DNA of 64,000 nucleotides from Escherichia coli (lineage in GTDB: Bacteria; Pseudomonadota; Gammaproteobacteria; Enterobacterales; Enterobacteriaceae). Position 1 is the stretch's first letter. Each line of letters opens with the position of its first letter. The notes below the pieces were generated by a model. The model was given only the letters and a program-made list of their open reading frames with translations. It made no database searches and had not been told where the DNA came from. Shown here in pieces: positions 2,839 to 29,575 of the stretch. The stretch is taken from NCBI RefSeq assembly GCF_022846255.1, contig NZ_AP025682.1. One strand, written 5' to 3'. A program made the translations under genes and the position numbers.

Positions 2839-3129
2839 TACCGTTGTCTCTCGTCCAGGTTTACTCCTGATAGAAAGTCATCGGCACTTGACGGTAATTA
2901 CTTATGACCAAAAACCTCTTTGCGTCACATTTTTACAACAATTATGGCAGAGAAGAATAATGCCATTGGAATGAAGAGAGTAACGAATGATTAAACTGGC
3001 AAACCCGAATGACGAAAAATTCTGGAAAACAGCACGCAATTTCGTCAGGTGATTATTTTCGTCCCTAAGGAAACCACATAGGATGCTCACGGGTGCCTGA
3101 GACTTTCTGTTTTCAGGCTAACCGGGAAT

Positions 3130-3200
3130 CAGAAAGACGAAGGCCCCGACCGATATTTCTATCAACCGAGGCCAACGAATGAACACAGCAATTCAGATCT
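3130..3200 (-). ncRNA. sokB: Putative Sok-type antisense RNA of the hokB locus (coordinates approximate)
   Basis: By analogy with hok/sok loci an antisense RNA is expected just upstream of hokB on the opposite strand; the minus strand here can form a stem (cgguugaua/uaucggucg with G-U pairs). Not verified by alignment. Confidence 0.25.
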
Positions 3201-3236
3201 TAGCCTCTTACCCGCCATCCGGCAAGGAGAAAGGCT

Positions 3237-3386
<150 letters not shown>

Positions 3387-3457
3387 GGGCAAGCGCGGGG
3401 ATTTTCCCCGCGCATCTGACTAGCAGATTCATTTTCTCATGGCACCCCTTTTACACT

Positions 3458-3631
3458 TCAGTTAGTGCATGTTTTTTTCGATGCACTAATAGAACCATCA
3501 TTACAGACAAATTTGCCGCCTGCCGTACAGTGTGAGATCCCCCCTTTCGAACCAGAACAGGGTTTGCGCCCGGCATCGGCATAAAAGGAAACAAGCGTTC
3601 CCATAACCAGGATAAGCGCCAGTTTTTTCAT
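3458..3631 (-). CDS. ydcA: Small secreted/lipoprotein-like protein, 57 aa
   Basis: Hand translation MKKLALILVMGTLVSFYADAGRKPCSGSKGGISHCTAGGKFVCNDGSISASKKTCTN with signal peptide; GGAGG RBS; position between hokB and cybB as in K-12. Confidence 0.75.
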   Translation of the reverse strand: MKKLALILVMGTLVSFYADAGRKPCSGSKGGISHCTAGGKFVCNDGSISASKKTCTN

Positions 3632-3801: not shown

Positions 3802-3866
3802 CTTCCGATGTAGGCCCGTATTCTTCGCCTGTACCACGGGTCGGTTTTAGTACAGGCGTTTTCTTT
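3802..3866 (+). ncRNA. rydC: RydC small regulatory RNA
   Basis: cttccgatgtaggcccgtattcttcgcctgtaccacgggtcggttttagtacaggcgttttcttt matches the RydC sequence as recalled (one possible substitution); TATAAT -10 at 3791..3796; ends in hairpin plus U-run; lies between ydcA and cybB. Confidence 0.7.
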
Positions 3867-23700: not shown

Positions 23701-24242
23701 CCAACACCGGTGGTCAGGCGTCGAAAGCGACACCGCTGGGTGCAGTAACTAAGTTTGGCGAGCACGGCAAACGTAAAGCGCGTAAAGATCTTGGCGTCAG
23801 TATGATGATGTACGGTCATGTTTATGTGGCGCAGATTTCTCTCGGCGCGCAGCTGAACCAGACGGTGAAAGCGATTCAGGAAGCGGAAGCGTATCCGGGG
23901 CCATCGCTGATCATCGCTTATAGCCCATGTGAAGAGCATGGTTACGATCTGGCACTCAGCCACGATCAGATGCGCCAACTCACTGCTACCGGCTTCTGGC
24001 CGTTATATCGCTTCGATCCTCGTCGTGCCGATGAAGGCAAACTGCCGCTGGCGCTGGATTCACGCCCGCCGTCAGAAGCACTGGAAGAAACGTTACTTCA
24101 CGAGCAGCGTTTCCGTCGTCTGAATTCGCAGCAGCCAGAAGTGGCAGAACAGTTATGGAAAGATGCTGCAGCTGATTTGCAAAAGCGCTATGACTTCCTG
24201 GCACAAATGGCCGGAAAAGCGGAAAAAAGCAACACCGATTAA
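20718..24242 (+). CDS. ydbK: Pyruvate:flavodoxin/ferredoxin oxidoreductase, 1174 aa
   Basis: 1174 aa PFOR with two 4Fe-4S ferredoxin motifs (CTQCNHCVAACP, CTGCNLCVEVCP) and a TPP-binding region. Confidence 0.95.
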   Translation: MITIDGNGAVASVAFRTSEVIAIYPITPSSTMAEQADAWAGNGLKNVWGDTPRVVEMQSEAGAIATVHGALQTGALSTSFTSSQGLLLMIPTLYKLAGELTPFVLHVAARTVATHALSIFGDHSDVMAVRQTGCAMLCAANVQEAQDFALISHIATLKSRVPFIHFFDGFRTSHEINKIVPLADDTILELMPQAEIDAHRARALNPEHPVIRGTSANPDTYFQSREATNPWYNAVYDHVEQAMNDFAAATGRQYQPFEYYGHPQAERVIILMGSAIGTCEEVVDELLTRGEKVGVLKVRLYRPFSAKHLLQALPGSVRNVAVLDRTKEPGAQAEPLYLDVMTALAEAFNNGERETLPRVIGGRYGLSSKEFGPDCVLAVFAELNAAKPKARFTVGIYDDVTNLSLPLPENTLPNSAKLEALFYGLGSDGSVSATKNNIKIIGNSTPWYAQGYFVYDSKKAGGLTVSHLRVSEQPIRSAYLISQADFVGCHQLQFIDKYQMAERLKPGGIFLLNTPYSAAEVWSRLPQEVQAVLNQKKARFYVINAAKIARECGLAARINTVMQMVFFHLTQILPGDSALAELQGAIAKSYSSKGQDLVERNWQALALARESVEEVPLQPVNPHSANRPPVVSDAAPDFVKTVTAAMLAGLGDALPVSALPPDGTWPMGTTRWEKRNIAEEIPIWKEELCTQCNHCVAACPHSAIRAKVVPPEAMENAPASLHSLDVKSRDMRGQKYVLQVAPEDCTGCNLCVEVCPAKDRQNPEIKAINMMSRLEHVEEEKINYDFFLNLPEIDRSKLERIDIRTSQLITPLFEYSGACSGCGETPYIKLLTQLYGDRMLIANATGCSSIYGGNLPSTPYTTDANGRGPAWANSLFEDNAEFGLGFRLTVDQHRVRVLRLLDQFADKIPAELLTALKSDATPEVRREQVAALRQQLNDVAEAHELLRDADALVEKSIWLIGGDGWAYDIGFGGLDHVLSLTENVNILVLDTQCYSNTGGQASKATPLGAVTKFGEHGKRKARKDLGVSMMMYGHVYVAQISLGAQLNQTVKAIQEAEAYPGPSLIIAYSPCEEHGYDLALSHDQMRQLTATGFWPLYRFDPRRADEGKLPLALDSRPPSEALEETLLHEQRFRRLNSQQPEVAEQLWKDAAADLQKRYDFLAQMAGKAEKSNTD

Positions 24243-24270
24243 ATGCTCTGGATAAGGATCATCCAATTCT

Positions 24271-24380
24271 AAAAAAAAGCCCGGACGACTGTTCGGGCTT
24301 GTCTTCTTATATGTTGGAAAATCAGTAGCAATGCAATGGCCCAACAGAAAATAAAATCTGTGACAATAAAGGCATATAAC
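24271..24380 (-). ncRNA. micC: MicC small RNA (OmpC regulator)
   Basis: Minus strand reads gttatatgcctttattgtcacagattttattttctgttgggccattgcattgctactgattttccaacatataagaagacaagcccgaacagtcgtccgggctttttttt, matching MicC as recalled at all but about three positions; sits between ydbK and ompN and shares the gcccgg hairpin with the ydbK terminator. Confidence 0.7.
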
Positions 24381-24607
24381 CCGCGCAGAATAACGTATAG
24401 AAAATTAAAAGTATAATTTTTATTTTGTATGTGTTATCTCCAATACATTCACCAGACTTATTATCATTTCTGAAGAATTATTTAATTAAGGTTTTACTTA
24501 AGGCGTAACAAATGATATTTATCGGCTAACTGAACTTCTCCTTTAGGATGTTTTCACTCCCCAAAATGGGGATGAAAGGCAAATAAAATAACTAAAGGAT
24601 TTATTCA

Positions 24608-25741
24608 ATGAAAAGCAAAGTACTGGCACTCTTAATTCCTGCCCTGCTCGCTGCAGGTGCTGCACATGCAGCCGAAGTTTATAATAAAGACGGCAACAAA
24701 TTAGATCTGTATGGCAAAGTTGATGGCCTGCATTATTTTTCTGATAATTCAGCGAAAGATGGCGACCAGAGCTATGCTCGTCTGGGTTTTAAAGGCGAAA
24801 CCCAAATTAACGATCAACTCACTGGCTACGGTCAATGGGAATACAATATTCAGGCAAACAACACCGAATCTTCAACAAACCAGTCATGGACCCGTCTGGC
24901 ATTTGCCGGACTGAAATTTGCAGATTACGGTTCTTTCGATTACGGACGTAATTATGGCGTAATGTACGACATCGAAGGCTGGACTGATATGCTACCTGAA
25001 TTTGGCGGTGACTCTTATACCAATGCAGACAACTTTATGACTGGTCGTGCCAATGGCGTCGCGACTTATCGTAATGCTGATTTCTTCGGTCTGGTAAATG
25101 GTCTGAACTTCGCGGTGCAGTATCAAGGTAACAACGAAGGTGCCAGTAATGGTCAGGAAGGCACCAACAACGGACGTGATGTTCGCCATGAAAACGGTGA
25201 CGGCTGGGGTCTTTCCACAACATATGATTTAGGCATGGGCTTTAACGCTGGTGCGGCATACACCTCTTCTGACCGCACCAATGACCAGGTTAACCATACT
25301 GCGGCGGGTGGTGATAAAGCAGACGCGTGGACTGCTGGGCTAAAATACGATGCTAACAATATTTACCTGGCAACCATGTATTCAGAAACGCGTAATATGA
25401 CCCCGTTTGGCGACAGCGATTATGCTGTTGCAAACAAAACCCAGAACTTTGAAGTCACTGCACAGTACCAGTTTGATTTTGGTCTGCGTCCGGCAGTCTC
25501 TTTCCTGATGTCTAAAGGCCGTGACCTGCACGCTGCCGGTGGTGCAGACAACCCAGCAGGTGTTGATGATAAAGATCTGGTTAAATACGCCGATGTTGGC
25601 GCGACTTACTATTTCAATAAAAACATGTCCACCTATGTTGACTATAAAATCAACCTGTTGGATGAAGATGACAGTTTCTACGCTGCCAACGGCATCTCTA
25701 CCGATGATATCGTCGCTTTAGGTCTGGTTTATCAGTTCTAA
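24608..25741 (+). CDS. ompN: Outer membrane porin N (OmpC/OmpF family), 377 aa
   Basis: Signal peptide, general-porin motifs and C-terminal aromatic residue (…LGLVYQF); 377 aa. Confidence 0.9.
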
Positions 25742-25800
25742 ATCCCCCTGCCCGCTGTTTTGGCGGGCTTTTTCTGCCTATTCATCCTCCTTTGATCTAA

Positions 25801-26316
<516 letters not shown>

Positions 26317-26323
26317 CACTAAC

Positions 26324-26348
26324 GCCCGCACATTGCTGCGGGCTTTTT
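26324..26348 (+). terminator. uspF intrinsic terminator
   Basis: gcccgca-cattgc-tgcgggc hairpin followed by T5. Confidence 0.6.
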
Positions 26349-26502
26349 GATTCATTTCGCAAATGTGCTGACATTTTCCCCTCTAATCATTACAATTTAA
26401 ATTTATGAATTATGCATTGATAATCGCTATTATAATATCGTTCCCTGTGCATTATTATCAGTTTTTCTGGTATTAAAAGACTGGGCGCTAATAGGAGATG
26501 CA

Positions 26503-27003
26503 ATGAACCACGCAATGTTTCCTGGCATAGTTCTAGCCTGGATTATAGGTATGCCGCTGGGAATTGGTGCATTTATTGTAGGACTGTCTTGTGCAATTGC
26601 AACTGGCTATCTGAAAGATAATAGCATCATAAAGAAAGATACCATTATAGGTATCGTTTTTTCAGGAATTTTTGTCTTGACTATCAACAGGCACAAGTCA
26701 GCGGATTACAGATATCATTATTACATTACAGTTTACTCTGCATGGTATCGCCTACCATTTTTGCCACATTAAAAGCAGTCGGAATTATTCTGTCTATATA
26801 CTATTAACAGCTCCAGGGTCTATTGCTGTCCTCACCACGCGTCGCTTTCATAAGGCATTACTTATCGCCGTAACGATATCAATAACAATATCAGGCGTAT
26901 GGTTATTATATTTTCTCGACAGAGCCCCAGCGCCGACAATCGTCCTCTTATTTGCTGTAGCATTTCTTTTCGCGCTGATAATAATCAATTTTCGGAAACA
27001 ATA
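26503..27003 (+). pseudogene. Frameshifted, 5'-truncated ABC-3 family metal-transporter permease (ZnuB/SitD/MntB-like)
   Basis: Frame 1 (MNHAMFPGIVLAWIIGMPLGIGAF...IIGIVFSGIF) resembles the central part of ZnuB-like permeases; after a stop, two other frames carry the C-terminal part (...LLYFLDRAPAPTIVLLFAVAFLFALII); no N-terminus and no adjacent ATPase or binding-protein genes. Confidence 0.5.
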
Positions 27004-27283
27004 ATCTCAACAGTAGAATAAAGAGGCAAATCAATCATTACATATATAAGATGGTGCTAATATTGTACCGCCTTTAAATTGAATTTTATCCTTTCACCCT
27101 TACACAATTTAAGGAATGCAGATGACTATTTTATCAGCTCCCAGCCTTTTTCCTGGTAATCGAAAACTTGAAAATCATTAACTCTAAGAAATTCTGCCAA
27201 ATCGTTGAAATTACTTTAAATTAGACTCGAACAAATCAACCCCTGATGGGGCTTTTACTTATCAATTTAATCGTGTAGATATC

Positions 27284-27331
27284 GACCTCCATCTGCCCGC
27301 CTCAGATTCGTACCTGGTGGAGGTCTTTTTT
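27284..27331 (+). terminator. Putative intrinsic terminator inside the AT-rich remnant
   Basis: gacctcc ... ggaggtc stem with an inner atctg/cagat stem, followed by T6; no annotated gene upstream. Confidence 0.4.
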
Positions 27332-27392
27332 CGTTGCCTCTTTCCCCCTTTAGTTCAGTATAAAATCATCAAACTAATGCTGTTCACACTAT

Positions 27393-27572
27393 TTACCTCC
27401 AGCATTCTATATAAATAATAGAAATAAAAACCCCAATACATAGTGCATTGGCATGACCAAACATCAATGCCATTATACTCGCCTCTGTTAAATACTCGCT
27501 AGTTAATATGATAGGCACGCATGATATAACAATCCATATGCTAATACATAAATACACCAGTATTTTTCTCAT
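27393..27572 (-). CDS. Hypothetical 59 aa hydrophobic small protein (unverified)
   Basis: ATG-initiated ORF in ~30% GC DNA translating to MRKILVYLCISIWIVISCVPIILTSEYLTEASIMALMFGHANALCIGVFISIIYIECWR with two predicted hydrophobic segments; weak RBS; one codon under the ORF-track cutoff. Confidence 0.2.
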   Translation of the reverse strand: MRKILVYLCISIWIVISCVPIILTSEYLTEASIMALMFGHANALCIGVFISIIYIECWR

Positions 27573-28279
27573 AGTCAGTCCCTGTGATTAACAACAAGGC
27601 ATAGTTAAACATATTTCACATTCAAACGTAAACATTATTAATAAAATTCTGTCAATCAAACTGACATCACGATTCAAGCCCTCTTCAAACTGAAGGTTAG
27701 AGCAGCGTAGAACATTTCAAAACAATACACTAAAAAAATACCCGAACAAAAAACTTAATTCTTTTTTATTGTGAACTTTAGTAATTTTGCCATGCAACTC
27801 TTTATTACATTTAGGCCTATCTTATTTCATGGCAACGCAGATACAGGACCATTTCTTGTGCTATGGATAAGTAATAAGCTAGTTACATCTTTTTAAGAGA
27901 ACCATTTTCACATATCAAGATATCATCACCACCCACAATGAATTAAGTATTTTTCTTATTCTTTAGATTAGATGCGTAATGAATCCCTAACTCCATTCGG
28001 GCGTTATGGCTCTTTCATTTGAAATACATTCATATCCAATGTAATATTTCCATGCGCAAATATAACTACCGACCATACTCATCATTTATTACAGAGAATT
28101 ATTTTATTCACCGAAAAGTTTCACAAAATATCCCCTGATAGAAAACTAAAAAACACTGCATAATATCGCTATTCTGGCACTTGCGAAAAATTATATTCTG
28201 CACCTGTTGTAGCGTTCTATTTCTCCGCCTGGCAACGAATGCACAATGTCCGCCACAGTTTCTGTTCTAATTTCTTCCT

Positions 28280-28588
28280 GTGTTACCGCATCCTGTACGG
28301 GTAGCGCAACACCAGCATGCTAAGCAAGGCTTTCCCATCAGATTTCACTACGACTATTTGGGAGCGAGATGGAATGCAGCAGTAAAACGTGCTGGTATTC
28401 GCCGCCGTAATCCGTACCATACGCGACATACTTTTGCCTGCTGGCTGTTGACGGCAGGAGCGAACCCGGCATTTATAGCCAGCCAGATGGGGCATGAAAC
28501 TGCGCAGATGGTGTATGAAATTTACGGTATGTGGATTGATGACATGAACGACGAACAGGTAGCCATGTTAAATGCGCGGTTATCGTAG
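28280..28588 (+). pseudogene. 3' fragment of a phage-type tyrosine integrase (intR-like remnant)
   Basis: Only the catalytic C-terminus is present (RRRNPYHTRHTFACWLLTAGANPAFIASQMGHETAQMVYEIYGMW with the conserved His/Arg/Tyr residues); the upstream part of the frame is not integrase-like; immediately 5' of ttcA, where intR lies in K-12. Confidence 0.6.
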
Positions 28589-28639
28589 TTGCAAAGTTTG
28601 CCCTCAATATGCCCCACTTAGTACCAGAGAACTGAAATA

Positions 28640-29575
28640 ATGCAAGAAAATCAACAAATTACAAAGAAAGAACAATACAACCTGAACAAATTACAAAAAC
28701 GTCTGCGTCGTAACGTGGGCGAAGCCATTGCTGACTTCAATATGATTGAAGAAGGCGATCGCATCATGGTTTGCCTCTCCGGGGGTAAAGACAGCTATAC
28801 CATGCTGGAGATTCTGCGCAATTTGCAGCAAAGCGCGCCAATCAATTTTTCGCTGGTGGCTGTTAACCTCGATCAAAAGCAACCGGGCTTCCCGGAACAC
28901 GTTCTGCCCGAGTATCTTGAAAAGCTGGGCGTTGAGTACAAGATTGTTGAAGAGAACACTTACGGTATCGTGAAAGAGAAGATTCCGGAGGGCAAAACCA
29001 CTTGCTCACTGTGTTCTCGCCTGCGTCGCGGTATCCTTTATCGTACCGCAACGGAACTAGGGGCGACGAAGATCGCACTGGGTCACCATCGTGACGATAT
29101 CCTGCAAACGCTGTTCTTAAATATGTTCTACGGTGGCAAGATGAAAGGTATGCCTCCGAAACTGATGAGCGATGATGGCAAACATATCGTGATCCGTCCG
29201 CTGGCCTACTGCCGCGAGAAAGATATTCAGCGCTTTGCCGATGCAAAAGCGTTCCCGATTATTCCGTGCAACCTGTGCGGTTCACAGCCTAACCTGCAAC
29301 GTCAGGTGATTGCTGACATGTTGCGTGACTGGGATAAACGTTATCCGGGGCGTATCGAGACGATGTTCAGCGCAATGCAGAATGTGGTGCCGTCGCATCT
29401 GTGCGATACCAACCTGTTCGATTTCAAAGGCATTACCCACGGTTCTGAAGTGGTTAACGGGGGTGATCTGGCGTTTGATCGCGAAGAGATCCCACTACAA
29501 CCAGCGGGCTGGCAGCCTGAAGAAGATGAAAATCAGTTGGATGAGTTACGGCTGAATGTGGTTGAAGTGAAATAA
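28640..29575 (+). CDS. ttcA: tRNA 2-thiocytidine(32) synthetase, 311 aa
   Basis: PP-loop motif [11 protein letters not shown] and the two CxxC clusters; 311 aa. Confidence 0.9.

Follow-up and report, generated by a model that had tools for sequence, protein, structure and literature searches.

The hairpin and T run that appear to close a small plus-strand transcription unit in this Escherichia coli chromosome very probably belong to what decay has left of the 3' part of a phage hok gene, which lies on the minus strand in the debris of a Rac-like prophage and is here read backwards, so that the plus-strand unit itself would be an artefact of the reading. The window, that is, the whole 64-kb stretch of DNA analysed, from the first letter of which all positions are counted, is part of a phylogroup-B2 chromosome with 99.8% identity to that of the enteropathogenic (EPEC) O127:H6 strain E2348/69.

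The initial annotation had proposed an orphan unit of ~230 nt, running from a sigma-70 promoter to the hairpin, and had listed an sRNA, a leader peptide, or the tail of a lost phage gene as its possible content. The last of these suggestions was essentially right, with two differences: the gene belongs to the minus strand, and the hairpin is part of its coding region, not its terminator. The features of the locus are listed in Table 1.

Table 1. Features of the locus and its surroundings (window positions).
Feature	Position	Strand	Basis
sitD-like permease pseudogene, lone, frameshifted	26366-27004	+	
Promoter-like element of the initial annotation (TTGAAT, 18 nt, CACAAT; 8/12)	27079..27108	+	
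19-codon ORF of the initial annotation (MTILSAPSLFPGNRKLENH)	27122..27181	+	nothing indicating a gene
Read-start span of the Hfq-bound RyhB-chimera fragments	27151..27438	minus	PMC8550237 Table S3
Small hairpin just after the hok stop codon (AGCCCCATCAGGGGTT, then GATTTGTT)	27238..27253	minus	hairpin at the matching position in intact hok genes
Relic of a hok/gef-family type I toxin gene, codons ~23-51 and stop	27249..27338	minus	blastn, local alignment, tblastn, Pfam
Antisense image of hok codons ("hairpin + T6")	27284..27331	+	codon comparison with hokD and hokC
Deletion junction, 17 nt in place of ~289 phage nt (L007 3219-3507)	27339..27355	minus	block alignments
ORF59, unannotated 59-aa hydrophobic two-helix ORF directly upstream of the hok relic	27393..27572	minus	phage homologs
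ORF59 5' UTR and start region, RIL-seq partner of PasD2	27554..27596	minus	PMC8550237, duplex prediction
LygF/YdaW-like fragment (prophage debris)	28125-28280	minus	
Integrase C-terminal fragment adjoining ttcA (prophage debris)	28280-28588	+	

The hok relic and its antisense hairpin

The relic shares 80% identity over 66 nt with hokD and with a phage coding sequence labelled "MokW" (blastn, E = 5e-6 against 28 Gb). When the segment 27005-27400 is used as the query, ~170 other E. coli genomes match only positions 27273-27338, at 77-80% identity, and the matching genes, which are annotated as hokD or "Hok/Gef family protein", all run opposite to the query strand. Local alignment of 27338..27249 with the hok gene of phage vB_EcoS-640R1 (L007 3508-3601) spans the stop codon and scores 63, against 19 +/- 2.3 for shuffled sequences. 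The minus-strand translation, TKKDLHQVRI*GGQMEVDIYT, aligns with TRKDLCEVRIRTGQTEVAVFT of HokD (tblastn, E = 0.002), and ranks second among the Hok matches of the window, behind the genuine hokB at 3237-3386. In Pfam, HOK_GEF is the sole family touched by this translation, with E = 0.05 and 13.6 bits, which is under the cut-off of 22. The hok-homologous stretch is short, at 90 nt and 21 aa.

The relic is damaged in a number of ways. It contains an in-frame TGA and deletions amounting to 4 nt, and CAC CAG (His-Gln) stands in the place of TGC GAG (Cys-Glu), so that the conserved Cys of the L-C-E motif has been lost. It has no Shine-Dalgarno (SD) sequence, start codon, or N-terminal transmembrane half, given that the homology begins only at about codon 23, and the sequence upstream of this point is the 3' flank of ORF59. 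The sok/hok leader (Rfam RF01794) was not recovered in 24000-29000 (E <= 1) or in 27000-27700 (E <= 10), in searches for which phage loci (112 and 115 bits) and the hokB locus of the window (105.8 bits) were the positive controls. The mok start is also absent, its phage counterpart (L007 3383 onward) falling within the deleted segment 3219-3507, and for the 3' fbi element, the sequence downstream of the relic stop has no significant similarity (score 12, against 10.7 +/- 1.6), while its tac partner is deleted. With neither a toxin nor an antitoxin encoded, the relic should be unable to work as a toxin-antitoxin system, and neither toxicity nor post-segregational killing is predicted from its sequence.

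The hairpin and T6 described in the initial annotation are really present. The stem is formed by 27284-27293 (GACCTCCATC) and 27316-27325 (GGTGGAGGTC), with 10 pairs, including one G.U, and a predicted stability of -16.7 kcal/mol; it encloses a loop of 22 nt, which is unstructured in the predicted fold, and is followed immediately by T6 at 27326-27331. Read as codons on the minus strand, the arms are GAC CTC CA (Asp-Leu-His) on the 5' side and TG GAG GTC (Met-Glu-Val) on the 3' side, while two lysine codons, AAA AAA, give T6 when reverse-complemented. An equivalent inverted repeat (GACCUCUG/CGGAGGUC) is found in intact hokD, hokC, and the phage copies, where the hairpin folds alike. These intact genes have AGG AAA at the position of the two lysines, which yields only T3 on the antisense strand, and two G-to-A changes (AGG to AAA) in the relic produce AAA AAA. 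The terminator-like appearance of the plus strand would, then, have arisen by accident, through two G-to-A changes next to a stem that was already part of the hok coding sequence.

The hairpin is not an element of hok mRNAs across the family, since it is absent from hokA, hokB, hokE, and the R1-type hok, which fold differently. Given that it is found only in hokD, hokC, and the phage copies, no claim of covariation is made for it. Between the relic and hokD, the stem differs by the replacement of U.G with C-G and of G-C with A-U, changes which would fit a constraint on structure or codons in the hok mRNA better than a plus-strand terminator. The hairpin is invariant in five aligned B2 genomes, the copies of which are at least 98% identical and thus provide no power for the detection of covariation.

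The G+C-rich stem with six T residues directly after it is typical of intrinsic terminators. The loops of these terminators are usually 3-8 nt long, however, in contrast with the 22 nt observed here; no plus-strand gene or credible promoter was found upstream, and the codons of the other strand explain the sequence. The terminator scan did not report the hairpin at 27284-27325, its loop being longer than the limit of 8 nt. In a loose scan of both strands of the 64-kb window, six places have a stem of at least 8 pairs and a loop of up to 25 nt followed by T6. The hairpin is not a terminator on the minus strand either, since the A run precedes it and no U run follows.

The possibility that the antisense hairpin and T6 form an accidental, active terminator, which would stop read-through from uspF and the sitD-like pseudogene and shield the convergent ORF59 transcript while defining no gene, is considered unlikely. 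The stem and T6 are immediately adjacent, uspF and the pseudogene do lie upstream on the plus strand, and only weak hairpins are found past 27004, but a canonical terminator with a T run after it already serves uspF at 26324-26343, and the large loop speaks against efficient termination. Even so, a stem of 10 bp and -16.7 kcal/mol with T6 could stop some plus-strand read-through by accident.

The collapsed prophage at ttcA

The stretch is what remains of a Rac-like lambdoid prophage that was integrated at ttcA, where Rac itself is located in K-12, and has since collapsed; the debris beside ttcA includes a short match to phage Rac-SA53. The gene order in this part of the window is nifJ/ydbK, MicC (minus strand), ompN, uspF, the sitD-like pseudogene, a gap of ~1.2 kb, a DUF1627 fragment, the integrase C-terminal fragment, ttcA, and dbpA. 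The RefSeq annotation is empty for the gap, which is A+T-rich (31-36% G+C) and holds the hairpin, the 19-codon ORF, the hok relic, and ORF59. The sitD-like pseudogene, which has ~68% nucleotide identity with plasmid sitD and is found without sitABC, is present in all the B2 copies of the locus, and starts at the position of sitD codon 1, directly past the uspF terminator.

The arrangement on the minus strand, with the LygF/YdaW fragment followed by ORF59 and the 3' 40% of hok, matches that of intact phages. In vB_EcoS-640R1, for example, the order is O, LygF, several small genes, a homolog of ORF59, a complete hok/sok, and Q, with the Rfam sok match at L007 3270-3445 (112 bits) and hok at 3440-3595. 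Gene order and orientation are also as in the window in vB_EcoS-813R8 and PhiR42_1, and homology to these phages extends from ~120 nt upstream of ORF59 to ~40 nt beyond its stop codon. After the ORF59 homolog, 640R1 carries an intact sok/hok and PhiR42_1 a hok interrupted by a transposase, while ~270 bp are deleted in the window.

This deletion is delimited by block-wise local alignments of the window and the phage with shuffle controls. In the first block, 27694..27356 corresponds to L007 2884-3218 (score 70, against 17.9 +/- 2.8 for shuffles), and in the second, 27338..27249 corresponds to L007 3508-3601. The alignments show that ~270 bp are missing in comparison with the phage, and what is missing comprises the hok promoter, the tac/ucb leader with the Sok target, sok, the mok start, and, for hok itself, the SD sequence, start codon, and codons 1-22. 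Directly 3' of hok in two phages (L007 3604-3685 and L005 1389-1470), there are weak isrK-like Rfam matches of 26-27 bits, for a gathering score of 50, and these have no counterpart in the window.

The history of the locus may be reconstructed on this basis. The collapse of a lambdoid prophage at ttcA left the LygF/YdaW fragment, ORF59, and the 3' 40% of a hokD/hokW-type gene on the minus strand, with the ~270-bp deletion taking everything from the hok promoter, leader, sok, and mok start to the SD sequence, start, and transmembrane half of hok. The remaining part of hok decayed, gaining a stop codon and indels and losing the conserved Cys. The internal inverted repeat of the hokC/hokD type, formed by the Asp-Leu and Glu-Val codons, is the hairpin noticed here, beside which the AGG-to-AAA mutation produced T6, and, on the plus strand, the two would resemble a terminator by accident.

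The closest relatives of the relic are the hok genes of lambdoid phages, such as hokD/relF of Qin and hokW of Sp5, with 78-80% nucleotide identity over the C-terminal half of the coding sequence. Like these genes, the relic contains the internal inverted repeat and has a hairpin behind its stop codon, and it shares their early-right (nin-like) position between the replication genes and Q. It differs from them in retaining only codons ~23-51, with a stop codon and frameshifts, and in having no start, SD sequence, transmembrane half, mok, sok, or leader. The hokW-sokW pair, by contrast, functions as a toxin-antitoxin system and helps in the release of phage (PMC8621323). The regulation of an intact hok involves tac/fbi closure, 3' processing, mok-coupled translation, and Sok pairing (PMC9841398), and the losses of the relic leave this regulatory logic without a substrate here.

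The relic resembles the hok loci of K-12 in having been carried into the chromosome and then disabled, and according to the literature, chromosomal hok loci are mostly inactive. In K-12, hokA, hokC, and hokE adjoin IS150 or IS186, and hokD, which lacks mok and sok, follows relBE, with no sok annotation. The K-12 copies keep complete toxin ORFs, however, whereas the relic is a fragment of 90 nt with no RefSeq annotation. A recent survey classes short or stop-containing hok copies as degenerate and sets them aside (bioRxiv 10.1101/2025.08.07.668861). The element is an ordinary unannotated relic of a hok pseudogene, of a kind that is already known.

In a sensitive blastn search, the full stretch 27005-27400 was found in ~1,043 of 5,426 complete E. 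coli genomes, always with at least 98% identity. The matches include E2348/69, APEC O1, ATCC 25922, and ST131, which are all B2 strains. The conservation of the locus looks clonal, and clonal conservation at this level of identity says nothing about selection.

The proposed plus-strand unit

The interval between the sitD-like pseudogene and the hok relic (27005-27248, 244 nt) carries both the promoter and the ORF of the initial annotation. It has no homolog in phages, plasmids, or non-B2 E. coli, and matches neither the phage sequence downstream of hok nor the flank of plasmid sitD. The statement that the hairpin has no gene upstream holds for intact plus-strand genes; the frameshifted sitD-like pseudogene ends at 27004.

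The -35 hexamer of the proposed promoter, TTGAAT at 27079-27084 (4/6), is found as described, but the TATAAT-like hexamer that was placed after a 17-nt spacer is not, given that the sequence at this distance is ACACAA (1/6). The best -10 hexamer is CACAAT at 27103-27108, with a spacer of 18 nt (4/6), which brings the total to 8/12. Each strand of 27005-28280 has ~15 sites of 8/12 or better per kb, a density that falls to ~5 per kb over the window as a whole, and the promoter-like element is at the level of this local background; it was not listed by the promoter scan, being below the threshold. With the -10 hexamer ending at 27108, transcription would start ~7 nt further on, at or past the AAGGA, so that, judging from the coordinates, the promoter and the ribosome-binding site could not both serve the ORF. 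At 27084, the T of the window is a C in the E2348/69 reference and in four other B2 genomes (-35 = TTGAAC), and this is the sole difference from that reference in 27000-27620. In strain AVS0543, an IS1 (L016 1748-2445) is inserted at 27094-27102, with a 9-bp target duplication (TCACCCTTA), and splits the two hexamers.

The 19-codon ORF exists as a sequence, with its ATG at 27122, its stop codon ending at 27181, and AAGGA at 27111-27115. It has no match in Pfam, and among the five aligned B2 genomes it has a single change, which is synonymous. Rfam contains nothing relevant to 24000-29000 (E <= 1) or 27000-27700 (E <= 10), the latter segment returning only noise from Rfam 15 (snoRNA, miRNA, and GIR1, at E 4-9), in searches in which MicC, RydC, and sok at hokB were the positive controls in the window. 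The MicC sRNA gene is at 24263-24383 on the minus strand (122.7 bits), between nifJ/ydbK and ompN, as expected, and the RydC sRNA gene is at 3802-3865 on the plus strand (90.5 bits). The intact hokB locus occupies 3091-3386 on the plus strand, with sok matched at 3091-3242 (105.8 bits) and the HokB ORF at 3237-3386. The folding of the 236-nt candidate plus-strand RNA is equal to that of its shuffles (z = -0.05).

It is thus very improbable that a sigma-70 promoter at ~27079-27108 drives a plus-strand RNA of ~220 nt, ending at the hairpin and T6, which would act as an sRNA or encode a 19-aa peptide. The strong hairpin directly before T6, the AAGGA located 6 nt 5' of the ATG, and the retention of the stretch in ~1,043 genomes may all be cited in favour of such an RNA. 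The stem and T6 are accounted for by hok codons, however, and the loop is far larger than those usual in intrinsic terminators, while the promoter is one of many such sites, would set the start at or past the SD sequence, and is interrupted by IS1 in AVS0543. In addition, no Rfam family or unusual folding accompanies the sequence, its conservation is clonal and uninformative on selection, and RIL-seq shows RNA from the other strand only, a method that detects Hfq-bound chimeric RNA alone, so that a missing plus-strand entry is not proof that no plus-strand RNA exists.

ORF59 and the minus-strand RNA

Upstream of the relic, ORF59 is likely the real gene of the stretch. It has full-length homologs (40.7% amino acid identity, E = 5e-11) upstream of hok/sok in three lambdoid phages, with counterparts, for example, at L007 3001-3180 and L006 3001-3177, and it is intact in five B2 genomes. 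Some sources list it as a hypothetical or membrane protein. Searches for closer relatives recovered only the identical locus in IMG/VR and only near-identical E. coli entries among 5.8 billion proteins. The identification of ORF59 as a diverged Hok was considered and rejected (tblastn, E = 0.75). The phage records annotate, in place of the ORF59 homolog, a reading frame of the other strand (as "hornerin" or hypothetical); this frame is not open in the window, and these annotations probably sit on the wrong strand.

In RIL-seq data from EPEC E2348/69, the entries for ttcA.uspF.IGR are all on the plus strand of the record NC_011601 (PMC8550237 Table S3), which is the minus strand of the window (window = 1607134 - record). 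This strand assignment was checked against the quoted sequence CUUGUUGUUA-AUCACAGG-GACUGACUAU, which is found on the window minus strand at 27598-27571. The prophage sRNA PasD2 has 14 chimeras with ttcA.uspF.IGR at record + 1579538-1579544, with the motif AUCACAGG, and RyhB has 13 at record + 1579696-1579983 (PMC8550237). Both sets were obtained under a virulence-activating condition, and are significant only in the pooled library (PMC8550237).

The read starts of the PasD2 chimeras fall at window positions 27596-27590, immediately ahead of the start codon of ORF59. When the sRNA core is paired with 36-nt target windows, the PasD2 duplex predicted over the SD sequence and start of ORF59 (27588..27554) has -27.9 kcal/mol, against -21.0 +/- 2.4 for the shuffles, none of which (0/60) reaches this value. 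The read-start span of RyhB takes in the end of ORF59 and the whole hok relic, and reaches into the antisense of the 19-codon ORF. The RyhB duplex, which is predicted across the ORF59 stop codon (27409..27377), is marginal, at -25.9 kcal/mol against -20.6 +/- 2.5, with one of the 60 shuffles performing better. From these data, we infer that the locus produces an ORF59 transcript from the minus strand, the 3' untranslated portion of which includes the hok relic.

A further reading holds that the relic has been exapted, with the hok fragment and its flank being kept as the 3' UTR of the ORF59 mRNA, in which the hairpins would stabilise the RNA or offer a site for Hfq and RyhB. The RyhB read starts are distributed over 27438..27151 of the minus strand, a RyhB duplex is predicted at 27409..27377, and PasD2 is predicted to pair at the ORF59 start, all of which is in line with this idea. 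It is nevertheless doubtful, given that the RyhB chimeras number only 13 and are significant solely in the pooled library, their predicted duplex is marginal, the best RyhB site, at the ORF59 stop codon, is located upstream of the relic, and the clonal conservation of the locus provides no sign of selection. There is similarly little likelihood that the relic and its flank form a long 3' UTR in a scheme in which PasD2 controls the start codon, with Hfq and RyhB binding downstream. If exaptation were true, a dead toxin gene would be providing structure, or sequence for sRNA binding, to a phage-derived neighbour that is kept in all B2 E. coli.

As a decayed hok fragment read backwards, the locus opens no new question on transcription or on the biology of toxin-antitoxin systems. 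It does offer a caution, in that, where an annotation leaves a gap, a strong hairpin with a T run can turn out to be a decayed gene of the opposite strand, seen in mirror image. For the RefSeq records of B2 strains, such as EPEC E2348/69, APEC O1, ST131, and others, the correction would be the addition of a hok pseudogene fragment, and the more useful addition to the annotation would be ORF59, the RIL-seq target of PasD2.
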